From UHGV virus genome UHGV-1731069: a DNA stretch of 14,852 nt. One strand, 5' to 3'. A program made the position numbers and the translations under genes. Shown piece after piece: positions 3,502 through 12,598 of the stretch. The notes beneath the pieces were generated by a model. The model saw nothing but the letters and a program-made list of their open reading frames with translations. It did no database searches and was not told the origin of the DNA. The stretch's first letter is position 1; every line of letters starts with the position of its first letter. This DNA comes from a virus.

Positions 3502-4106
3502 CAGGACAACCTCGCAATGGTAAACTCGTCAACCGGTGGCTGTGGTTCCTGTGATTCATTCTGGCTATGCGAGCCAGCACTAAGAATCACGCGATTGTAC
3601 ATATTGAGGGCAAACGTACCGAGGTCTGCATTCCCAGTCAGCGCCATGTTAATAGCTGCCGCAAGACGCCAGGCCAACGCCTCCATAAAAATGGCATCAA
3701 ACATGTTCACATCTGAAACGCGAGAGACATACTTGAGCCATGCCTGCGGCTGGTCTGTGTAGATCAACTTTCCTGTTCCGTTGGTGTCTGCACCAACTTC
3801 GTACTGAACGCGCATTGCTGCTGTTGGATTGCGTACACCAGGAAGCATAATTTCAGTAATGCGCAGACAATCAGACGGGTACTGGTACGCATATTCCCAG
3901 TCAGGCGGTGGATTGCTCGTATCTGCAAGCGCCACGCGTTTGGTAGCAAAGTTCCAGTCAAAATCAGAAAGCACAGCATCACGGCAGGCCTCAAAGTGCA
4001 GCGAACATTCCCCCGCTTCCTTGCTGGCTTCCGTCAGGCTGTTAATGCTGCGGCTGTTGCCAATATTGGACAGCGCACGATTGCAGATCTCTACTACAGA
4101 GGCCAT
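3501..4106 (-). CDS. Head-tail adaptor / tail tubular protein A-like (T7 gp11-type)
   Basis: 201-aa ORF with ATG at 4106 overlapping the upstream stop. N-terminal ICNRALSNIGNSRSINSLTE is reminiscent of the gp11-type adaptor N-terminus; size about 200 aa and position directly before the large tail tube gene. Confidence 0.5.
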   Translation of the reverse strand: MASVVEICNRALSNIGNSRSINSLTEASKEAGECSLHFEACRDAVLSDFDWNFATKRVALADTSNPPPDWEYAYQYPSDCLRITEIMLPGVRNPTAAMRVQYEVGADTNGTGKLIYTDQPQAWLKYVSRVSDVNMFDAIFMEALAWRLAAAINMALTGNADLGTFALNMYNRVILSAGSHSQNESQEPQPPVDEFTIARLS

Positions 4107-4429
4107 TACTCACCCCCATTGCCGTACAGAGTTTCAGCCGCTGATTTTTCTACATCACCGGAAACAGGAGCGATTGCCATATCAGTGATCTGCAGATCGG
4201 CGCTGCGATTAACGCCATCGTCAGTTTCTCTGGCAGACAGGCCTCGAATAACAGCCTTTGCAGTTATCATCACTTCTGTTCCGACGCCCTGAGGTTGCGC
4301 CTTCAGCTTATTCAATGTGTCGTTATTCAGCGTGATGCACAGCCCCCATGGGTATTCATCGCGAGTTCTGGTTTCTCCGCTCTCATCCTGGTAGCTGTCA
4401 GTGCCGGTTTTGAGGTTTACGAGTTCCAT
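4106..4429 (-). CDS. Hypothetical phage protein
   Basis: The ORF track starts at GTG 4435, but the ATG at 4429 has AGGAG 5 nt upstream. Sits just after a terminator-like hairpin; stop overlaps the next start. Confidence 0.5.
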   Translation of the reverse strand: MELVNLKTGTDSYQDESGETRTRDEYPWGLCITLNNDTLNKLKAQPQGVGTEVMITAKAVIRGLSARETDDGVNRSADLQITDMAIAPVSGDVEKSAAETLYGNGGE

Positions 4430-4479: not shown

Positions 4480-4815
4480 TTACACGCCCAGTTCTTTACG
4501 CTTATCTGCGATCTTCTCGCGGAGCGTTTCAGCTTTGGCGTTATGGTGTGGCTTCTCGTTAAAGAGCAATTCGTACTCTTCACGGAGCTTATCCAGTTCA
4601 CCATCATCTGACACATCGTTGATGATTTTGGTGCTGGTTGCTGCCATTGACACCTTTCCTGCAACTTTTGCTTTTGCCTGTCTGGCTGCATCGTTAACAG
4701 GTTCCAGTGCGCTACCAGGCTCACCTTCGTATTCGATTTCTGCCCCCTCCGGCCACAGAGTGTTATGGATATGAGAGAGGCGCAGAACGCGGTATCTTGG
4801 TTTCTCACCTGACAT
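4480..4815 (-). CDS. Hypothetical phage protein
   Basis: The ORF track starts at GTG 4824, but the ATG at 4815 is preceded by AAGGTGA with a 5-nt spacer. Lys/Glu-rich C-terminus; no recognisable family. Confidence 0.5.
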   Translation of the reverse strand: MSGEKPRYRVLRLSHIHNTLWPEGAEIEYEGEPGSALEPVNDAARQAKAKVAGKVSMAATSTKIINDVSDDGELDKLREEYELLFNEKPHHNAKAETLREKIADKRKELGV

Positions 4816-4825
4816 CGATATCACC

Positions 4826-5263
4826 TTAACCAGTTACTTTTGAGCGGATCGGATACGGCGTATTGGCATCAACATCAAGACTGATACCAGCAGTGAATTC
4901 GCCAGCCGTTAGTGGGCCAGTTGCGACGGAGTAGTTAACACGCAGATATCGCTGAACACCGGCAGGCACCTTTGCAGAAACAACTCGTTTACCTGCTGTC
5001 AGGGCGGTCTTTGCCAGTGCGCCACTATCATAAATAGTGGTCCATGAGCTGTTATCCTCACTCGTCTGCAACTGGATGTTTACAGTTGCATCACCGCTTG
5101 CCGCGGCGGCTGTGTTAACCAGCGCCCAAAACTCAAGCGGGTAACCCACGCCGATATCACGACGTTTTCCGTCAATTGGACCGAGATCGATTACGTCAGT
5201 AGAAGCCGCGGTATTCGTAACCGCCTGAGCTTCGGAGAACATCAACAGTTTGTCGGTGATCAT
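4826..5263 (-). CDS. Hypothetical virion protein, possibly a capsid accessory or decoration protein
   Basis: 145-aa ORF immediately downstream of the major capsid gene, ATG at 5263 with GGAG 8 nt upstream. Gly/Ala/Thr/Val-rich, beta-rich-looking composition. Function is inferred from position only. Confidence 0.45.
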   Translation of the reverse strand: MITDKLLMFSEAQAVTNTAASTDVIDLGPIDGKRRDIGVGYPLEFWALVNTAAAASGDATVNIQLQTSEDNSSWTTIYDSGALAKTALTAGKRVVSAKVPAGVQRYLRVNYSVATGPLTAGEFTAGISLDVDANTPYPIRSKVTG

Positions 5264-7013: not shown

Positions 7014-7310
7014 TCACTCCTGTTCACTGGCCTCTTTGGCCATCTTCAAATACTGTTCAGGGCAATGCGCCATAACGCGCTGAAACAGTTCCAGCGCCAG
7101 ATTGCGTTGCCCCTCATTAAATGCCATTGCCATAGCGTCCATCGGCGAGATAGCGGAAAACACACGGCCTTTCTCCAGTACCGACCAGACAACCCGACGC
7201 CCCTGTTCACAGCTCATGACAAAGCGAATGTCATCAATTTCACGCTGTGCCATGTCACGTTGCTTACGGGCGTTTTCTTCTTTCAGTTGATCGTCTTCGT
7301 AATCTGTCAT
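7014..7310 (-). CDS. Hypothetical phage protein between portal and scaffold
   Basis: 98-aa ORF, ATG at 7310 overlapping the portal stop (ATGA), GGGTGGG upstream. No recognisable motif. Confidence 0.5.
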   Translation of the reverse strand: MTDYEDDQLKEENARKQRDMAQREIDDIRFVMSCEQGRRVVWSVLEKGRVFSAISPMDAMAMAFNEGQRNLALELFQRVMAHCPEQYLKMAKEASEQE

Positions 7311-8986
7311 TGTGATTGCCCACCCTGACCACTAACTGCATTCGCCATAGCTGACAAAACACTCGGATCCGAAGTTTTAGCTTCGCTTAGCGTCTTGGCC
7401 CCCTGTGCCGCCGCCATCCCCATCGCCATCATTTGTTGCTGCTGTTGCTGCTGTGCCCGTTGCTGGCGAGCCTGCTCAACCTGTTCCTGCGGAACAATGA
7501 CGGTTGGAGACACTCCGGACATATCAGCGAATGCATCGATCGCCTGATCAACGTTGAGTTTGTCGAGAGCTTCTGGTTTCGCTTGCGCAAGTTGACCAAT
7601 GAAGTTAACCGTGGACGCCAGACTGGACAGGCCGATAGACTTCTGCGCCTGAGCCATGACGGAAATGTATTCGACCTTCAGGGGCATGCCTTCCATCGCG
7701 TCAGGCGGTGGCGGCAGCATGTTTTTACGCACCATCATCGAGAAAGCGCGGTCAATGAGAGGATTAAGACATTCGTCGTTCAGACGCTCCAGAACCGGCC
7801 CCAACATCAGAAGTTTTTCTTCTTTCATTTCGATCACCGCTTCAACAGGCATCGAGCGGGTATTGATGTTCTGCAACATCATGAACAGATCGACAAAGTA
7901 GGCGCTGTTAATGATTTGACGAGTGTCCTGAATGTCTGCCACCAAATCTGCTGTACTGGGGTTAACCAGATAAGCAGGCCTGAAGCCATCCTGACCAGTA
8001 ATCTGATCGATATACGTGATGTCGCCAGGAAGAAGGGAGGCGCGCTGATTCTTGAGGGAAGTCGGAGCAACCATCGGCGGATTGGTGGCTTTATCAATCA
8101 ACTGCGACTTGCGCTTCTGGAGAAGCTGCAATGCCTTAACAGGTCCAAGCGCCAGCATGCCCGGGCATGATGATCCATAAACATCTTCACCGTTAACTTC
8201 CCAGCGCGGAGCCATAATTGGAAACTCATCGAATCCGGACTCACGCAACAACTTGTCGTTATCGCCACCAACCTCGTAATAAACCGATTTGAATGGCTTG
8301 TTCTTGCTATCCAGCTTCGATGTATCGCGGTCAATGTTCGGGTAAACCGAATGCATCACGTCAATCCACTTCTCGTAGATGCCGCTTTCCCACATGCTTT
8401 TTACGGATTCGCTGACGTTATTTAGCCCGAACTCCTGAACAAGCTGACGAACAGTCATAGAGAACTTGCGAAAACAGGTGTCAACACTGCCACGAGGTGA
8501 GTTAGCCAGGTAGTAACTGCCTATCGGGAATGGCATTGTGCGAATGATGTCCTCATCATCCTCCAGTACCGCCATTGCACCGGTGCTGTATGTGCCGAGG
8601 CTTCCGTATAACTGCGGCAGCGACTGATAGAGATTCGACTTATTGAACATATCGTTCATGCGGTTCTGCACCGCCTCAAGCCACAACTTAACAGGGCCAT
8701 AATCCATCATTTCAGGATCTGGCGTAGCCAGGCGAAACCACGGACGCGCGGGGCTTGTGATGCCTGACATCATGCCGCTGGCGAGAGTGCGCGCCGCCAT
8801 AGTCCCGGTCGAATCAATAATGTGTGTATTGCGCCGATCGTTACGGTTGGCCTCAGAAGTCAGAAAGCGGGAACCACGCGGGTTGATGTAATCACTCAAC
8901 TCGCGCCAGTGCGGCTCGAACGACTGACGCTCGCTTTCAAGTTGTGCGAACTGTTTGTTCAATCGCTCTTTAGTTGTTTCCGCCAT
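7307..8986 (-). CDS. Portal (head-tail connector) protein
   Basis: 559-aa ORF, ATG at 8986 with GGAG 8 nt upstream. Size, position after the terminase and a Gln/Met/Ala-rich C-terminal tail (QQQQQQQMMAMGMAAAQGA) resemble the T7 gp8-type connector as I recall it. Confidence 0.75.
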   Translation of the reverse strand: MAETTKERLNKQFAQLESERQSFEPHWRELSDYINPRGSRFLTSEANRNDRRNTHIIDSTGTMAARTLASGMMSGITSPARPWFRLATPDPEMMDYGPVKLWLEAVQNRMNDMFNKSNLYQSLPQLYGSLGTYSTGAMAVLEDDEDIIRTMPFPIGSYYLANSPRGSVDTCFRKFSMTVRQLVQEFGLNNVSESVKSMWESGIYEKWIDVMHSVYPNIDRDTSKLDSKNKPFKSVYYEVGGDNDKLLRESGFDEFPIMAPRWEVNGEDVYGSSCPGMLALGPVKALQLLQKRKSQLIDKATNPPMVAPTSLKNQRASLLPGDITYIDQITGQDGFRPAYLVNPSTADLVADIQDTRQIINSAYFVDLFMMLQNINTRSMPVEAVIEMKEEKLLMLGPVLERLNDECLNPLIDRAFSMMVRKNMLPPPPDAMEGMPLKVEYISVMAQAQKSIGLSSLASTVNFIGQLAQAKPEALDKLNVDQAIDAFADMSGVSPTVIVPQEQVEQARQQRAQQQQQQQMMAMGMAAAQGAKTLSEAKTSDPSVLSAMANAVSGQGGQSQ

Positions 8987-9000
8987 TTCAATGACTCCGG

Positions 9001-9207
9001 TTACTGACCAAGCAGCGTTTTACCGCTGGTATTAGCAGTTGATGTGTCGCCCTGAGAACCGGTAAGCAGCGTAGAACTACGACCAGCAGCAGCGCGACGG
9101 CGACGTGTTTCTTCGTCGCGGGCATCAACAACGGCGGCATCCTGCTCCTGTGGTGCTGCCTGAACTTCTGGTGTTGCAGGCACTGATGGTGAGCTACCCA
9201 TGCACAT
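9001..9207 (-). CDS. Small low-complexity protein upstream of portal (possibly a gp7.3-like virion protein)
   Basis: 68-aa ORF with ATG at 9207. Its translation initiation region (CGGAGTCATTGA then ATG) duplicates the portal's over 12 nt, which supports real translation. Ala/Pro/Gln/Ser/Thr-rich with an RRRR cluster. Confidence 0.4.
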   Translation of the reverse strand: MCMGSSPSVPATPEVQAAPQEQDAAVVDARDEETRRRRAAAGRSSTLLTGSQGDTSTANTSGKTLLGQ

Positions 9208-9275
9208 ATCAATGACTCCGTACGCAATTAAATTATTACCAATTTAACCACATATGATTTATTTATCGTAGGTAG

Positions 9276-9304
9276 TTGACATTTAACGCACGAATTATTA
9301 CCTT
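9276..9304 (+). promoter_or_regulatory. Candidate sigma70-type promoter reading toward the tRNA
   Basis: Perfect -35 TTGACA (9276-9281), 17-bp spacer, then TACCTT (9299-9304), which matches the three most conserved -10 positions. Lies in an AT-rich tract with a 10-bp direct repeat AATTATTACC at 9231-9240 and 9293-9302. Confidence 0.25.
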
Positions 9305-9635
9305 TCAGGTAAGTAAAGGGTTCATTCCGGTTATTAACCTGACTGGCTTGTCGTTAAATTGAACAGGTGGAGTGAGCTTTTATTTTGAGCAGTACGGCGT
9401 ATGGCACATGCGCCGATAGCGGTCTGGATACGTTTAAGGGGCACCCTCCCTTGCTCGGGCAAACGAACCAGGTAGCTGGAATGTGCAAGTCGAGCGGTTT
9501 TATTCCGCGCGCGGGGATTCACCATCCCGGCGATTCGGTGTGACGCCTCGGAAGAGACGAGGGTACAACGATGAGAGCATTTATGGAGCTGCGACAAAGT
9601 GTGGCGCACTTAACAGGCTAAGTGCTCTCAGCGTT

Positions 9636-9712
9636 GTGGCATTAGCTCAGTTGGACAGAGCAACCGCCTTCTAAGCGGTTGGTCGCAGGTTCGAATCCTG
9701 CATGCCACGCCA
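9636..9712 (+). tRNA. tRNA-Arg (anticodon TCT, reads AGA), argU-like, phage-encoded
   Basis: Hand-folded cloverleaf: acceptor GTGGCAT/ATGCCAC, D-stem GCTC/GAGC, anticodon stem ACCGC/GCGGT with loop CTTCTAA (anticodon TCT), T-arm GCAGG-TTCGAAT-CCTGC, discriminator G and encoded CCA. Closely resembles E. coli argU as I recall it but with a different acceptor stem. Confidence 0.9.
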
Positions 9713-9755
9713 GAATCACGCCTAAGGACCGTGATGCCAGAAGTTCCAGGGGCTT

Positions 9756-9797
9756 GGCGGTGATGGTTTCCCTTGAAGGACTATCACCGCCCTTTTT
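9756..9797 (+). terminator. Intrinsic terminator-like hairpin downstream of the tRNA
   Basis: 9-bp perfect stem GGCGGTGAT / ATCACCGCC with an 18-nt loop, followed by CTTTTT. Confidence 0.45.
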
Positions 9798-9875
9798 ACA
9801 GCAGGACGCCATTGCGATGACTTCATGCTGTAAACCAGTACAGCCACGGAAGGCATAACTCATTGCTTCCAGTTC

Positions 9876-9899
9876 GCCCGGTTCGCCGGGCATTTTTTT
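9876..9899 (+). terminator. Intrinsic terminator-like hairpin immediately upstream of the 139-aa ORF
   Basis: GCCCGG-ttcg-CCGGGC (UUCG tetraloop), then A and seven T. The SD AGGTGA (9901-9906) and ATG 9911 follow directly. Confidence 0.55.
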
Positions 9900-9910
9900 A
9901 AGGTGAGATC

Positions 9911-10330
9911 ATGAAGACAATTGATATGTTGGCTAAGTATCTAAATGAATGGCCATTAAAATATTCTCGTATCGTTCAGGCTGAAGACTGCATTTTTTAT
10001 GGCGTTTTTGCTGATAATGAAATGCATTACGAAGTAATTCAGAGTGAGGGACTGGCCGGGTTAACTCTTAGCGAAGACCATGGTACTAGCGTTACGTTCC
10101 ATGACTGGATAACAGCACAACGTTCTGAAATGGAAAAAGGCGATGTGTTTGATATTTCTCGCGCTGTTTACGCTAAAGCAAAAAGTGATAATGATTACAT
10201 GAGCGAACACTTATACAACATGAAGTTACAATGCCTGCATGCGGCGCTTATTCAGAATGGGCACTTCGATAAAACAAGTGCCATCAATATTGCGGAAGCC
10301 ATCAACGCTGGATTTAATGCCATTAAATAA
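9911..10330 (+). CDS. Hypothetical protein, moron-like accessory gene of unknown function
   Basis: 139-aa ORF on the opposite strand to all flanking genes, with SD AGGTGA 4 nt before the ATG and its own downstream terminator. Hand count gives about 30-37 percent G+C over the first 110 nt, clearly below the flanking structural genes. No recognisable catalytic motif or transmembrane segment. Confidence 0.6.
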   Translation: MKTIDMLAKYLNEWPLKYSRIVQAEDCIFYGVFADNEMHYEVIQSEGLAGLTLSEDHGTSVTFHDWITAQRSEMEKGDVFDISRAVYAKAKSDNDYMSEHLYNMKLQCLHAALIQNGHFDKTSAINIAEAINAGFNAIK

Positions 10331-10420: not shown

Positions 10421-11896
10421 TTAAGCATAGGGATCGTAATCTGTGATGGCCTTGCCTTGCTGGTTCTGCTGCCCGGGAATTCGCAGACGCTTCGACACAG
10501 GAAAAGCAAACGTCAGCAGTAGCGCATCGCCTTTACCCGGCGAACGCCCAAGCCGCTCCTTGATATCTTCCTTCGGTTCGATAACGATTTTACCGTCCAC
10601 GCGAACTTTGTACTCTGCCGCCGACAGGTCGTCTGCAGTTTCCTGGTCATCCAGCATGCCGCCCAGCCTCAGCCATGTCTTACATGAGTTGAACATCTCC
10701 CCACGCTTGTTGAGCATCTGCGGGTCAGTAGACGCGCCACCGAACGGAACAAGTTGCCATGTACGACCCCAGCCGTCACCGATTGACTTCAGACCAGTTC
10801 CGTAACCGAAGTCGATGAACACTGCGTCAGCCTGGTACTGGTCTTCAAAGTCAGCGATACGCTTCGCCATAATCAGATCGTCAGTGGTCTTGTTGCCAGT
10901 CCACAGCACCTTACTGTGCAGCCCCTGCCGCAGGTATATCACAGCGTCATCAACGCCTGAGTATGCCGGGTCAACGCCGATTATCACCGGAGCATGTGCA
11001 ACCTGCGCAGCGGTGACCACCCGTTTCATTGCCTCGTCAGTAAGTCCGGTAGGGATAAACTGCAATTCAGATGCATCCGGGAATATGCCGCGCACACGGA
11101 TTTTAACGAAGTCGCTGTCTTCCCCGTAGTCATCAACCCATTTCTGCAACTGCTGTTTGTTGGTGCCTTCCACCGTCCGGCTGTCAATCTGCGCAGTTTT
11201 CCAGCGGTGTTTATATTTGCGGAAACATTCGCGGAAACGTCCGGTATTACGCGTCGGGTTTCCGAACGCCACCCAGATAATCTCAGTGTCTTCGTCCGTA
11301 AGCGCACCCTCAGCAACTTCCCACACCAGATCCGCAATGTTCGACGCTTCATCGAATACCACGATGATGCGTTTGCGCTCGTTGTGTAGTCCGGCGAATG
11401 CCTCAGTGTTGTGCTCAGACCAGGGGATTGCGTCAGCTCGCCACCGCTTGTCGTGCCCAGGATCATTGCTGTACATCGCGGTAGCGGTACAGGTAAACCA
11501 GTCTTTCGTGATAGCAAGGTTCGACCACTTGATAATTTCCGGCCAGGTCTTCGTTCGTAGCTGGTTGTCGGTGTTGGCAGTCACCACGACCTTACAATCC
11601 TCGCAAGTGGACATGCCCCAGTTGATCAGCATTGAGATGAATGCGGATTTACCAATACCGTGACCAGAAGCGCGTGCCAGCATAAGCGGCTGATAGCGCG
11701 TCTCTGGATTCTGCAGGTGATCACGTATCTCTCGGAACGCATCAGCCTGCCACTGACGTGGGCCGGTGGCATGTGCCAGTTCAGTCCCCTCTTCCCCCCA
11801 CGGGAACGCATAGAGGGCATAGCCAAGCGGATCGTGAGTGAACCCTGCAATATCCTCGATCAACTGCTCTTCAGGAGATAACGCTGTATCTGTCAC
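10421..11896 (-). CDS. Terminase large subunit
   Basis: 491 aa with Walker A-like ARASGHGIGKS, Walker B-like IIVVFDEAS, and a C-terminal nuclease-like region (VIIGVDPAYSGVDDAV). GTG start at 11896 overlaps the small subunit stop (GTGA); there is no in-frame ATG nearby. Confidence 0.85.
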   Translation of the reverse strand: MTDTALSPEEQLIEDIAGFTHDPLGYALYAFPWGEEGTELAHATGPRQWQADAFREIRDHLQNPETRYQPLMLARASGHGIGKSAFISMLINWGMSTCEDCKVVVTANTDNQLRTKTWPEIIKWSNLAITKDWFTCTATAMYSNDPGHDKRWRADAIPWSEHNTEAFAGLHNERKRIIVVFDEASNIADLVWEVAEGALTDEDTEIIWVAFGNPTRNTGRFRECFRKYKHRWKTAQIDSRTVEGTNKQQLQKWVDDYGEDSDFVKIRVRGIFPDASELQFIPTGLTDEAMKRVVTAAQVAHAPVIIGVDPAYSGVDDAVIYLRQGLHSKVLWTGNKTTDDLIMAKRIADFEDQYQADAVFIDFGYGTGLKSIGDGWGRTWQLVPFGGASTDPQMLNKRGEMFNSCKTWLRLGGMLDDQETADDLSAAEYKVRVDGKIVIEPKEDIKERLGRSPGKGDALLLTFAFPVSKRLRIPGQQNQQGKAITDYDPYA

Positions 11897-12489
11897 TGAT
11901 TACCATCCTGACGTTCTTTGAGTCGCTTCCTGGCTGCTGCTATGCGATCAGCAATTGTCACATTCACATTAACATCCAGACGTTCTTTGAACGCGTTGAC
12001 ATCAACATGCTTACCAATCAGCTCAAGGTTCTTCACCTTGTCAGGCCATTTAATTTTTTTGAGGATTGTCTCTATCGAATCCTCGTTCATGTTCATGATG
12101 GTCGATGACAGATCAAAGCCACTAAGCGTAGTGCGCCAGATTTTCGGCCACTCACGGATTGGTTTAAGGCTCCCATCGTCGTTGAGGATATCGATCACGT
12201 CCATCTGGTCGATCTCCACCAGGCGCATGAGAACGTAATCAGCACTGACGCGCATTCGTTTGTTGCGCTCCTCCATCAACTCGGCAATCCGTTTTTGAAT
12301 GCGTTCATCGCGCATCATGACACTGGCTTTAACTGCCGCTGTATTTGGGGAGAATCCTGCATTAATCGCTGCCTGAGTCTGGTTTTCAGGCGTTTTGATG
12401 TATGACTGGCAATAAGCCTCCTGCATTGCTGTTAGTGGCTTAAATTGCGTTGATTTGCGTTTATAGGTTTTAGGTTCAGCAGGCATCAT
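11893..12489 (-). CDS. Terminase small subunit (Terminase_2-like)
   Basis: Helix-turn-helix region QEAYCQSYIKTPENQTQAAINAGFSPNTAAV...RIQKRIAELMEER is typical of Terminase_2-type small subunits as I recall them. The ORF track starts at TTG 12567, but that extension contains a terminator hairpin and direct repeats; the ATG pair at 12489/12486 follows GGTGG. True start is probably 12486 or 12489. Confidence 0.75.
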   Translation of the reverse strand: MMPAEPKTYKRKSTQFKPLTAMQEAYCQSYIKTPENQTQAAINAGFSPNTAAVKASVMMRDERIQKRIAELMEERNKRMRVSADYVLMRLVEIDQMDVIDILNDDGSLKPIREWPKIWRTTLSGFDLSSTIMNMNEDSIETILKKIKWPDKVKNLELIGKHVDVNAFKERLDVNVNVTIADRIAAARKRLKERQDGNQ

Positions 12490-12496
12490 AACCACC

Positions 12497-12525
12497 GTGG
12501 TAATAGTTACCGTTGTGGTAATAGT
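12497..12525. repeat. Two 11-bp direct repeats GTGGTAATAGT just upstream of the terminase small subunit start
   Basis: Copies at 12497-12507 and 12515-12525, between the upstream terminator and the start codon. Could be protein-binding sites; function unknown. Confidence 0.4.
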
Positions 12526-12530
12526 ACCAT

Positions 12531-12558
12531 GCAAAATAAAGCCGCCATAGTTGGCGGC
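12531..12558 (-). terminator. Intrinsic terminator separating the accessory operon from the terminase genes
   Basis: In the minus transcript: GCCGCCA-acua-UGGCGGC followed by UUUAUUUUG. Confidence 0.55.
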
Positions 12559-12598
12559 AGTATTCAAAACCCATCAAATTCATCATGCATAATCTACT

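Follow-up and report, generated by a model that had tools for sequence, protein, structure and literature searches.

The window analysed here, the whole 14,852-nt stretch of the UHGV virus genome UHGV-1731069, contains a candidate promoter with an operator-like palindrome, a leader, a structured region, a tRNA-Arg gene, two intrinsic terminators and an ORF of unassigned function (Table 1). An earlier, sequence-only reading of the part between promoter and tRNA (9305-9635) had described it as a non-coding stretch with several hairpins that could be an sRNA, a riboregulator or a long tRNA leader. Comparison with relatives shows that positions 9395-9636 of the plus strand encode a member of a conserved structured-RNA family of enterobacterial phages. 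This element comprises a core of ~170 nt with five helices and long invariant junctions (P1, P2/P3, P4, P5 with an H-type pseudoknot, and P6), which is followed by a long hairpin, P7; core and P7 together measure about 240 nt. Of the extent originally proposed, 9305-9394 is only a lineage-specific leader, and while the helices are real, speaking of several hairpins was too modest for an RNA that also has a pseudoknot and long invariant junctions.

Table 1. Features at the RNA locus (positions are those of the window).
Feature	Position	Strand	Details
Candidate sigma-70-type promoter	9277..9305	+	-35 TTGACA 9277-9282, 17-nt spacer, -10 TACCTT 9300-9305
Operator-like palindrome TTACCTttcAGGTAA	9298..9312		Overlaps -10 and start site
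Lineage-specific 5' leader	9306..9394	+	Common to Uetakeviruses only
P1 hairpin	9395..9415	+	CGGCGTATG-gca-CATGCGCCG; 9 pairs
P2 helix	9419-9427 with 9468-9476	+	Encloses variable P3 domain 9428-9467
Invariant GGTAGCyGGAATGTGCAAG	9471..9489	+	End of P2 plus junction J2/4
P4 short variable hairpin	9494..9508	+	GCGG-uuuuauu-CCGC; pairing read in the window only
P5 hairpin and H-type pseudoknot	9514..9540	+	9514-9517 with 9525-9528; CACC 9520-9523 with GGTG 9537-9540
P6 hairpin	9546..9562	+	CCTCG-gaagaga-CGAGG; covariation
P7 long hairpin	9566..9636	+	Base helix 9566-9581 with 9621-9636; hypervariable loop 9582-9620
tRNA-Arg	9636..9712	+	Anticodon TCT (UCU), encoded CCA; ARAGORN, Rfam tRNA model
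Hairpin after tRNA	9715..9735	+	ATCACG-cctaaggac-CGTGAT
Intrinsic terminator T1	9756..9799	+	14-bp stem then CTTTTT; -22.8 kcal/mol (terminator scan)
Intrinsic terminator T2	9876..9899	+	GCCCGG-ttcg-CCGGGC then ATTTTTTT; terminator scan
Downstream cargo ORF	9911..10330	+	139 aa, PHROG 4846, function unassigned; neighbour, outside the RNA

The stretch is confirmed to be non-coding and to be structured beyond chance. Three ORFs lie over the element (9334-9609 on the minus strand, 9385-9543 and 9483-9674 on the plus strand), and none of them has a Pfam match or a conserved frame, which bears out the non-coding claim. The frame of the minus-strand ORF is not kept, because only 28 aa align with its mEp460 counterpart, and core lengths among relatives differ by non-multiples of three. 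A protein-coding reading was thus rejected for want of reading-frame conservation and of a Pfam match. Predicted folding is better than that of shuffled sequences both for 9290-9640 (z = -2.5) and for 9300-9800 (z = -4.2). The Rfam scan that had been recommended gave no family match over 9305-9635: at the gathering threshold of Rfam 15 only the tRNA passes in the whole window, at E <= 10 the sole match to 9305-9635 is a 16-bit chance match to PrrF at 9212-9352, and the mEp460 copy yields nothing relevant. Mimicry of ribosomal RNA was considered as well, given a 13-nt identity with 23S rRNA positions 1822-1834, and was discarded, since aligning eight family members locally to the rrnB operon gave nothing better than shuffles, and neither did duplex energies of the invariant junctions against rrnB.

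The structure is carried by covariation. In an alignment of 80 distinct relatives, 96% of the cells are paired, compared with 25-48% when partners are slid, changes on both sides occur in 14 of the 30 pairs, and the observed covariation values were reached in none of 500 shuffles. By mutual information, the top nine pairs all belong to the Watson-Crick pairs of the model, eight of them listed and one in P3, and they include the pseudoknot. The fifth pair of helix P1, which ranks second in mutual information, swaps between G-C and A-U (42 versus 35 sequences), and P2 shows a C-G/U-A swap (57 versus 22) next to two nearly invariant G-U/U-G pairs (79/80 each). These nearly invariant G-U pairs would be A-C on the opposite strand, and the plus strand is thereby fixed. 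Both-sided changes affect four of four pairs in P5 and four of five in P6 (e.g., C-G in 46 versus G-C in 25 sequences), and the pseudoknot pair, 99% of whose cells are paired, reads C-G in 68 sequences and A-U in 12; P5 and the pseudoknot are both among the top mutual-information pairs. Variation is found in the length and sequence of P3 between groups and in those of the P4 region across the alignment. The 19-nt invariant stretch that ends P2 and forms J2/4 is unchanged in 40 cluster representatives and served as the search pattern for genome scans. The invariant top of helix P1 and the equally invariant ATGTGC of J2/4 are complementary, so that an alternative conformer is possible.

The proposal of a structured RNA is thus supported by the covariation check across relatives that it had called for, helices and pseudoknot covarying on the plus strand, and the hairpins whose loss in relatives was to speak against it, P5 and P6, are conserved. 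Among the individual inverted repeats, CCTCG/CGAGG lies exactly where it was placed (9546-9550/9558-9562) and corresponds to P6. GGGAT/ATCCC is real and corresponds to P5, but lies at 9514-9518/9524-9528, about 8 nt from the position given. The palindrome CCGCGCGCGG was found again at 9505-9514, in the variable hairpin P4, which contains its first four bases. GCACTT/AAGTGC is present (9606-9611/9620-9625), but it is not kept in relatives and its 3' arm belongs to P7.

On the 3' side, the tRNA-Arg scores 73.3 bits with the Rfam tRNA model (9636-9709; gathering score 29), and its first base is the last base of P7. The same P7/tRNA-Arg junction occurs in 25 further loci, and in three more a longer P7 sets the tRNA at a greater distance from the core. 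Of 129 loci, 48 have a tRNA immediately next to the RNA; in P1-like phages it is a tRNA-Ile that ends 18 nt before helix P1, i.e., on the 5' side of the RNA. The suggested link with the tRNA therefore holds for the window, where the RNA lies directly 5' of the tRNA in a shared predicted transcript, but most relatives carry the element with no tRNA or downstream of a different one (as in phage P1). In many relatives the 3' tRNA is swapped for another module with identical boundaries, between P7 and the ATCACG..CGTGAT hairpin, which also follows the replacement module in the tRNA-less relatives L043, L062, L069 and L086. In this module a closing helix of 7 bp is followed by 2 nt, by a 4-bp stem capped with an 8-nt loop and, immediately ahead of the 3' strand, by a hairpin. 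The module has no match to the Rfam tRNA model, and its layout suggests that it may be tRNA-like. Other relatives carry tRNA-like pieces inserted within or after P7.

Hairpin P7 itself combines a base helix maintained by compensatory changes across 32 distinct stem versions with loops of 31-172 nt that are unrelated among phages with an identical stem; it is missing from P1-like copies. An antisense role of the hypervariable loop was rejected, as the longest matches of 14 different loops within 4 kb (8-11 nt) are not above those of shuffled loops, and trans action by base-pairing to nearby phage transcripts is consequently not supported. A boxA/boxC-like reading of the P7 3' strand was also set aside, the motif being base-paired and covarying away from the boxA consensus. 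Beyond the 3' module, T1 is conserved in Uetakevirus relatives and T2 is found also in epsilon15 and L069, while the downstream cargo position is occupied by different ORFs in different relatives. In L069, promoter, RNA, replacement module and terminators are kept and the ORF is reduced to an 8-codon remnant, so that the RNA is a unit independent of the downstream ORF. Conversely, epsilon15 has kept the ORF and lost the RNA; since this phage lives without it, the RNA is not essential.

Upstream, the TTGACA promoter candidate of the sequence-only reading was recovered with its -10 element TACCTT 17 nt further, although a stricter consensus promoter scan does not list this pair at 9277-9305. The TTGACA-17-TACCTT/TACCCT layout recurs 5' of the RNA in Uetakevirus relatives and is found also in epsilon15. 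The window has no other exact copy of the palindrome TTACCTttcAGGTAA; its counterpart by homology in epsilon15 is labelled a repressor binding site ('lysogeny') in that phage's record, and the operator is kept in L069, L076, L125 and L054. The leader matches only Tyrion, PAT1, epsilon15 and phiV10-like phages (query 58-140) and is missing from lambdoid and P1 copies. Promoters were found upstream of helix P1 in most clusters, those of non-P1 contexts being of the sigma-70 type and 7-150 nt upstream of the RNA, and at the Uetakevirus and mEp460-type loci examined this promoter is overlapped by operator-like palindromes. Phage mEp460 carries two operators of the TTGCGnnnTnnGCAA form upstream of the RNA and has this form between cI and cro as well, and the record of phage P7 annotates C1 control of the ban operon. 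Because the promoter of the RNA appears to be operator-controlled, early expression would be expected.

The family is widespread. The core is found in 1836 of 5426 complete E. coli genomes (34%) and the family in about 17 Enterobacterales species, confined to Enterobacterales phages; half of the 48 matches of the pattern scan of a genome collection are chance matches in unrelated phyla that fail the model. All confirmed copies reside in phages or prophages, among others P1, Stx phages and phiV10, and three unrelated phage groups share the core at about 80% identity amid unrelated flanks. Because of this wide spread, a module addressing a host part fits better than one with a phage-specific partner. 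Lambdoid pL leaders make up 64 of the 129 loci, and at least half of the loci have no detectable tRNA within 1.5 kb. In lambdoid phages the RNA heads the pL transcripts: it lies 0-55 nt beyond a pL-type promoter whose operators match those of OR, the copies starting 7-55 nt past the -10. In mEp460-type members, pL is followed by the RNA and a terminator before the first early-left ORF begins, and no other promoter was seen along this stretch; in several lambdoid clusters the terminator scan shows none after the RNA. P1-like phages carry the RNA between trnI and ban, inside the C1-controlled ban operon, and in P1 the core, at 71,023-71,191 of AF234172, lies 90 nt upstream of ban, after leader tRNAs and with no terminator. 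In Uetakeviruses it forms a promoter-to-terminator cassette with its own promoter and two terminators, facing a convergent terminase gene. The RNA is always co-oriented with the promoter and the neighbouring tRNA. Downstream genes differ among these contexts and share no family, and a fixed protein partner was rejected since flanking genes are context-dependent and downstream families unrelated. The RNA is annotated in none of the inspected records, several of which bear spurious CDSs over the locus. Its conserved strings were found in no paper, a preprint on the P1 transcriptome does not mention the region, and a catalogue of ~10,000 candidates from IMG/VR (PMC10690425) could include the family unnamed.

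Several known systems share part of this architecture. The C4 RNA of phages P1 and P7, the CI RNA of P4 and the CA RNA of N15 are small RNAs cut from phage operon leaders via tRNA-like features, with a conserved scaffold and variable specificity loops. The window RNA likewise abuts a tRNA or tRNA-like module and has a hypervariable P7 loop. However, the C4, CI and CA RNAs are antisense repressors of 70-80 nt with targets in the same transcript, whereas the window RNA has a much larger, pseudoknotted core and no P7-loop target within 4 kb. Rfam, which presumably includes a C4 model, gave no C4 match over the region. Their maturation by RNase P would be paralleled here in geometry only, with the module starting at the last base of P7. 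In MALAT1-mascRNA, RNase P generates the 3' end of a long non-coding RNA by cutting at a tRNA-like element further down, and the geometry is the same in the window, where P7 adjoins base 1 of tRNA-Arg; the eukaryotic system is unrelated in sequence. GOLLD and ROOL are structured, protein-independent RNAs of phages and prophages with no assigned function, which have variable peripheral domains and lie near tRNAs or embed them. The window family is similarly phage- or prophage-borne and next to tRNAs. In contrast, GOLLD and ROOL (structures in 10.1101/2024.12.08.627333) are Rfam families of 500-800 nt that come mainly from Firmicutes and environmental phages, while the window RNA is three times smaller, has no Rfam match and occurs in Enterobacterales phages only.

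Two further systems act on transcription itself. The eps-associated RNA (EAR) of Bacillales is a conserved pseudoknotted leader that helps transcription past distal terminators and needs no dedicated protein. Unlike EAR, which is found in one type of host operon, the window family moves between phages and can stand alone, and it matches no Rfam model, Rfam 15 presumably containing one for EAR. The put RNA of HK022 lies just 3' of pL in an N-less lambdoid phage, depends on no dedicated phage protein and is followed by terminators (PMC9378689); the lambdoid copies of the window family also lie just downstream of pL. However, put measures about 70 nt, has two stem-loops and is present in two copies, one per early operon, whereas the window family has its ~170-nt pseudoknotted core plus P7, is single-copy and is also found outside lambdoid phages. 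A search of the whole mEp460 genome at E <= 10 gave a single match, with no second copy and none downstream of pR. No sequence or structure homology to putL or putR was found, and homology to put was rejected because a search of the HK022 immunity region (L130) with the family model (R1) at E <= 10 found nothing.

We tentatively favour, with somewhat less than even confidence, a stand-alone early non-coding RNA that would be released by RNase P and act in trans on a conserved host factor. The RNA would be made in the first minutes after repressor loss, at the head of a short untranslated transcript, and would be freed by an RNase P cut where the tRNA or tRNA-like module begins. In the window, the freed RNA would have a length of ~240 nt and end at 9635. 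It would be stable and trans-acting, and its invariant single-stranded junctions may bind an Enterobacterales-conserved component, for example a defence protein or part of the machinery for transcription, translation or RNA processing. The tRNA would then be co-cargo and a processing handle and not the reason for the RNA. Several observations weigh against this reading. The pL-RNA-terminator-ORF layout of mEp460-type phages is equally expected of a cis-acting leader, the core near ban in P1, with no terminator, resembles a 5' UTR element, and no terminator follows the RNA in several lambdoid clusters. Moreover, the replacement module is not scored by the Rfam tRNA model, the P7 loop has no antisense target within 4 kb, and epsilon15 is viable without the RNA.

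The main rival to this trans-acting RNA is a cis-acting leader that would modify the elongating RNA polymerase, a case of processive antitermination or read-through that is put- or EAR-like and homologous to neither; early transcripts would then pass the terminators and untranslated stretches 3' of the RNA. We regard it as a serious, if unlikely, explanation. Lambdoid copies occupy the nutL/putL position after a pL-type promoter with cI operators, the mEp460-type terminator intervenes between the RNA and the first ORF with no other promoter visible, mEp460 has neither an annotated N-like gene nor an Arg-rich N-like ORF near pL or pR, and in the window two terminators separate the RNA from the downstream ORF. 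EAR also provides a precedent for a pseudoknotted antiterminator RNA. A put-like RNA in N-less lambdoids has been guessed by others (PMC12315714). However, each genome has a single copy, and the pR side of mEp460 lacks one, while HK022 has both putL and putR (PMC9378689), and the family model is blank in the HK022 immunity region. L069 has nothing downstream to read into, read-through in all Uetakeviruses would run antisense into the terminase gene, the P1 copy stands after leader tRNAs and is not followed by a terminator, and such a job would require neither the variable loop of P7 nor a tRNA or tRNA-like module.

Other explanations account for less of the evidence. That the RNA is a structured 5' leader or spacer with no function of its own, aiding tRNA folding, processing by RNase P or RNase E, or stability, agrees with its abutting tRNA-Arg in the window and 25 loci, with its position after tRNA-Ile in P1-like phages and with the tRNA-like pieces in or after P7 of other relatives. 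This is nevertheless improbable: no tRNA is detectable within 1.5 kb of at least half of the loci, 64 of 129 being lambdoid pL leaders, the same core stands 5' of one tRNA type and 3' of another and is conserved at about 80% amid unrelated flanks, and a 19-nt invariant junction plus a conserved pseudoknot exceed the needs of a leader. A riboswitch-like sensor, with a junction/pseudoknot pocket for a host metabolite or signal whose occupancy decides early termination, seems quite improbable. With P7 and the tRNA or tRNA-like module in between, the terminators are 190-300 nt from the core, so that no expression platform overlaps it, the unrelated downstream genes are not a functionally coherent set, P1-like copies have no terminator, L069 has no regulated gene, and no Rfam riboswitch matches; this is set against invariant unpaired junctions, pseudoknot and variable peripheral helices that are typical of ligand-binding RNAs, the many loci where it is a 5' leader with a terminator after it, and the possible conformer switch between helix P1 and J2/4. 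Lastly, it is very improbable that the locus is not an RNA at all and represents a minus-strand gene for a small protein (9334-9609) or a DNA site such as a single-strand initiation signal or recombination site. GenBank records, including those of mEp460 and BUCT709, do show hypothetical minus-strand CDSs over the locus, and the P1 copy adjoins the helicase gene ban. Yet the minus-strand translations of window and mEp460 align over just 28 aa, core length differences are not multiples of three, Pfam is blank, helix changes are compensatory with two invariant G-U pairs that read A-C on the other strand, and the element is always co-oriented with promoter and adjoining tRNA.

Few phages have been studied as well as P1, the lambdoid and Stx-converting phages and the epsilon15/phiV10 group, and still this RNA is unannotated in the inspected records. 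Should the RNA act in trans, phages would have a new route for handling the host with RNA alone, and this in the most tractable models. If it is instead a cis antiterminator, it would explain transcription of the early-left operon in N-less lambdoids, including Stx2c and some Stx2a phages, and would have a bearing on prophage induction in pathogenic E. coli. Either way, a covariance model and boundaries are supplied for annotation, a recurrent "hypothetical protein" is explained, and a conserved site is flagged in phiV10-type reporter phages and P1 vectors that it would be unwise to disrupt blindly. A broader reading, possible though on balance doubtful, is that these loci represent a new class of phage early RNA: a mobile, protein-independent, pseudoknotted module of ~170 nt in unrelated enterobacterial phage lineages, carried by temperate and possibly some virulent phages, which would be directly repressor-controlled, matured by the host tRNA-processing machinery, and would either disarm a host defence or bind a core host machine and reprogram it. 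Were this true, the family would constitute an enterobacterial and experimentally tractable counterpart of the GOLLD/ROOL-type phage RNAs.

The ~330 nt between promoter and tRNA contain a member of a new, widespread and strongly supported family of structured RNAs of enterobacterial phages, with a pseudoknotted core of ~170 nt (helices P1-P6) that is mostly followed by a hairpin, P7. Repressors control it, tRNA or tRNA-like modules accompany it, and neither Rfam nor genome annotation contains it. The sequence-only reading had suggested a structured RNA over 9305-9635; in the leader (9305-9394) blastn similarity is confined to Uetakeviruses, whereas 9394-9640 has ~80% identical copies in phages that otherwise share nothing with the window. 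The observation stands and deserves more interest than it was first given. The window is an E. coli phage or prophage of the phiV10/epsilon15 (Uetakevirus) type; over 9200-9910 it matches phiV10, TL-2011b and O157 typing phages 9 and 10 at 98-99% identity, and likewise ~500 E. coli chromosomes. The plus-strand cassette sits between two minus-strand late gene blocks, on the portal side (7307-9207) and the terminase side (10421-12567). The ORF behind its two terminators (PHROG 4846, without Pfam match) is variable cargo, and relatives have unrelated ORFs at this place (e.g., a 262-aa protein of PHROG 4780, of unknown function).

Features of the cassette and of the RNA, in window coordinates; the last column names the alignments in which a helix is found
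Feature	Position	Strand	Alignments
Promoter TTGACA / 17 nt / TACCTT	9277-9282 and 9300-9305	+	
Palindrome TTACCTttcAGGTAA	9298-9312		
Stretch without credible ORF	~330 nt, between promoter and tRNA		
P1	9395-9403 with 9407-9415	+	A3, A4
P2, enclosing variable P3	9419-9427 with 9468-9476	+	A3, A4
Invariant junction GGTAGCyGGAATGTGCAAG	9471-9489	+	
P4, variable hairpin	9494-9508	+	
P5	9514-9517 with 9525-9528	+	A3, A4
Pseudoknot, P5 loop CACC with GGTG	9520-9523 with 9537-9540	+	A3, A4
P6	9546-9550 with 9558-9562	+	A3, A4
P7 base helix	9566-9581 with 9621-9636	+	A3, A4
tRNA-Arg(TCT)	9636-9712	+	
Hairpin ATCACGcctnaggacCGTGAT after tRNA	9715-9735	+	
Two intrinsic terminators	9756-9799 and 9876-9899	+	
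ORF of 139 aa, then third terminator	9911-10330	+	

The structure was assessed in two alignments of relatives, one of 40 representatives (A3) and a model-based one of 80 distinct sequences (A4). Standard pairs occupy 95.8% of A4 cells, compared to 25-48% after a shift of the 3' partners by 1-3 columns, and 14 of the 30 pairs change on both sides (189 cells); the observed pairing, both-sided changes and covariation score were reached by none of 500 shuffles. An alignment not fitted to the model gives the same picture of pairing and covariation, and the nine best pairs of a model-free mutual-information scan all belong to the structure model, the pseudoknot and a P3 pair among them. Alternations include G-C (42 sequences) and A-U (35) at the fifth P1 pair, C-G (57) and U-A (22) in P2, C-G (46) and G-C (25) in P6, and C-G (68) and A-U (12) in the pseudoknot, where the mEp460 group has AACC/GGTT instead of CACC/GGTG. 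On the opposite strand, three G-U pairs that hardly vary (two of them in P2, one in P1) would read A-C, and therefore the RNA is the plus strand. The top of helix P1 (ATGGCACAT, 9400-9409) does not vary, and within it GCACAT is the complement of ATGTGC, an invariant part of junction J2/4 (9482-9487); RNAalifold favours this long-range pairing over the P1 hairpin, and it may represent an alternative conformer or a tertiary contact.

Several hairpins had been picked out before by eye. CCTCG/CGAGG lies exactly where it was placed (9546-9562) and is P6, and GGGAT/ATCCC, though ~8 nt away from its proposed position (at 9514-9528), is P5; both are genuinely conserved helices because compensatory changes occur in the alignments. 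GCACTT/AAGTGC is present at 9606-9625, but its pairing is not kept in relatives and its 3' arm is part of P7; the palindrome CCGCGCGCGG is found at 9505-9514. Folding energy is below that of shuffles (z = -2.5 for 9290-9640, z = -4.2 for 9300-9800). The absence of a convincing ORF was borne out: Pfam matches none of the ORFs located there, and a protein-coding reading was rejected, the longest ORF (9334-9609, minus strand) having only 28 residues alignable with the mEp460 ORF at the same place. GenBank phage records leave the region blank or overlay it with hypothetical CDSs, e.g., mEp460_037 (2443-2811 of its locus, minus strand), BUCT709 WCS67766.1 (2323-2613, minus), mEp390_036 (2511-2753, plus) and Tyrion gp54 (2711-2872, plus). 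The two minus-strand calls, of which mEp460_037 alone was compared directly, are probably artefacts of the conserved RNA.

The proposed Rfam scan (Rfam 15, gathering thresholds and E <= 10) returned nothing but the tRNA. A covariance model of the core scores every family member at 100-170 bits and does not recognise the HK022 immunity region, which contains putL and putR. RefSeq has no annotation under the 2113 matching E. coli records, and a search of a collection of papers with conserved strings and phage P1 gene names found no description, although a large IMG/VR catalogue of candidate RNAs might include the RNA unnamed.

Carriers include lambdoid phages (mEp460, cdtI, mEp390, Ayreon, 2H10, 1720a-02, Stx2c phages and some Stx2a phages), P1-like phage-plasmids (P1, P7, D6, SJ46, RCS47), and Klebsiella and Enterobacter phages. 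The 19-mer GGTAGCnGGAATGTGCAAG (9471-9489) retrieved at least 120 IMG/VR contigs, forming 43 clusters at 93% identity. Of 5426 complete E. coli genomes, 1836 carry the core, at 1914 chromosomal and 551 plasmid places; most of these plasmids are presumably P1-like. With one representative genome per species, the core model accepts 23 loci, all of Enterobacterales except for a 1753-bp MAG contig, assigned to Bacillota by binning and probably a contaminant; the remaining pattern hits failed the model and are chance matches. The only other copy outside Enterobacterales comes from BUCT709, a phage deposited under Stenotrophomonas, and hardly differs from enterobacterial copies; the host assignment or, for the MAG contig, the binning may be wrong. 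One lambdoid contig (L026) has two cores on the same strand (minus of the locus; 3993-4153 and 4800-4958), ~650 nt apart and both downstream of cI, the only double copy seen.

Three genomic settings recur: lambdoid, P1-like and Uetakevirus. The lambdoid setting (64 of 129 loci) has a cII-like gene and cro (divergent), then cI, the RNA and finally the early-left genes; in some phages an extra gene follows cI and the RNA remains on the early-left side. In mEp460, cI and its terminator are followed by palindromes TTGCGCATTATGCAA and TTGCGAGATATGCAA flanking a promoter, with the RNA starting ~45 nt beyond. This operator type recurs between cI and cro, which identifies the promoter as pL and the RNA as the first thing transcribed. 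From -10 to P1, lambdoid distances range from 7 nt (RNA start at about +1) to ~55 nt. In P1-like phages, the core begins 18 nt past tRNA-Ile(CAT) and ends ~90 nt short of ban, within an operon under C1 operators according to the annotation of the phage P7 record. The Uetakevirus palindrome at the promoter is the site annotated as repressor binding site in the epsilon15 record. Judging from these promoter and operator positions, the RNA should be made early after repression is lost in all three settings. The family is not confined to them, since Klebsiella phage SopranoGao (Lastavirus, 61 kb) has the RNA near its genome end (2438-2603 of its locus), after the lysis genes and distant from any repressor gene.

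In the window and 25 other loci, tRNA-Arg(UCU) starts at the last P7 base. Many tRNA-less relatives have a replacement module at exactly this place, consisting of GTGGTGA, 2 nt, GCGC-aggctgat-GCGC, a variable middle, GCCGG-agatcagca-CCGG and directly TCACCAC, the layout of a cloverleaf with an expanded middle; ATCACGcctnaggacCGTGAT follows it as it follows the genuine tRNA. Because the Rfam tRNA model does not score the module, it is only putatively tRNA-like. The P7 base helix, absent from P1-like phages, occurs in 32 stem versions with pairing maintained by compensatory changes, and its loop (31-172 nt) is unrelated among phages with the same stem. Some loops hold T-arm-like hairpins (CTGGTTCAATTCCAG, GTCCGTTCAATTCGGAC; after P6 in 1720a-02, Stx2a_1447 and locus L012) or a whole tRNA-like insert (with GAAAGGTTCGATTCCTTTC; locus L105), in none of which ARAGORN called a tRNA. 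The P7 3' strand and following bases (9621-9639, AGTGCTCTCAGCGTTGTGG; AGTGCTCTTTCCGTTGTGG in relatives) resemble rrn boxA (TGCTCTTT) and then a GT-rich box; a boxA-type Nus site found no support, as the motif is taken up by P7 pairing and its covariation departs from the boxA consensus. The P7 loop as antisense RNA to sequences near the locus found no support.

Whether the RNA acts on its own or as a leader can be weighed from these arrangements. A stand-alone, trans-acting RNA is our tentative reading, held at somewhat below even chances. In Uetakeviruses the unit carries a promoter and two terminators of its own and is opposed by a convergent late gene, and downstream ORFs vary among relatives, belonging to unrelated families of unknown function. 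Epsilon15 and an IMG/VR Uetakevirus contig (L069) are opposite deletions. In the contig (4721-5400) everything is intact from promoter and operator through the RNA, the tRNA-like module and the hairpin to the two terminators, leaving the unit alone before the convergent terminase gene with a downstream ORF of only ATG and seven codons. Epsilon15 (2550-2653 of its locus, ~window 9395-9800) retains promoter, operator and leader as well as P1 and some of P2/P3; its deletion took the remaining, larger part of the core together with the tRNA and first terminator but spared the second terminator and the ORF behind it, so that epsilon15 can do without the RNA. A cis-acting leader working as antiterminator, which we consider unlikely, would agree with the nutL/putL position of the RNA, the mEp460-type terminator between the RNA and the ORF that opens the early-left genes (a second promoter was not seen there), the lack of an apparent N-like gene, and the phage P1 copy within the 5' UTR of ban; however, it fits poorly with the complete L069 unit before an ORF cut to eight codons. 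The two roles need not exclude each other and could coexist, in different phages.

For the trans-acting RNA, a possible course is early synthesis once repression is lost, formation of defined ends by tRNA-processing enzymes at the flanking tRNA or tRNA-like module, and an encounter with a conserved host partner. Ends made by such enzymes are known for P1 C4 RNA, P4 CI RNA and eukaryotic MALAT1, and the adjoining tRNA or tRNA-like module would be expected if the RNA described here were processed likewise. A 13-nt identity to E. coli 23S rRNA (9536-9548, CGGTGTGACGCCT; rRNA 1822-1834), with looser likeness around it, was noted; neither rRNA mimicry nor rRNA pairing found support, and local alignment scores of family members against rrnB are within shuffle range. 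Two observations point to a partner that would be conserved among enterobacterial hosts: long unpaired stretches do not vary (GGTAGCyGGAATGTGCAAG, GGCGnnnnGGTGTGAC and the GAAGAGA loop), and the sequence stays almost unchanged between phages of Escherichia, Salmonella, Klebsiella, Enterobacter, Kosakonia, Citrobacter and Erwinia.
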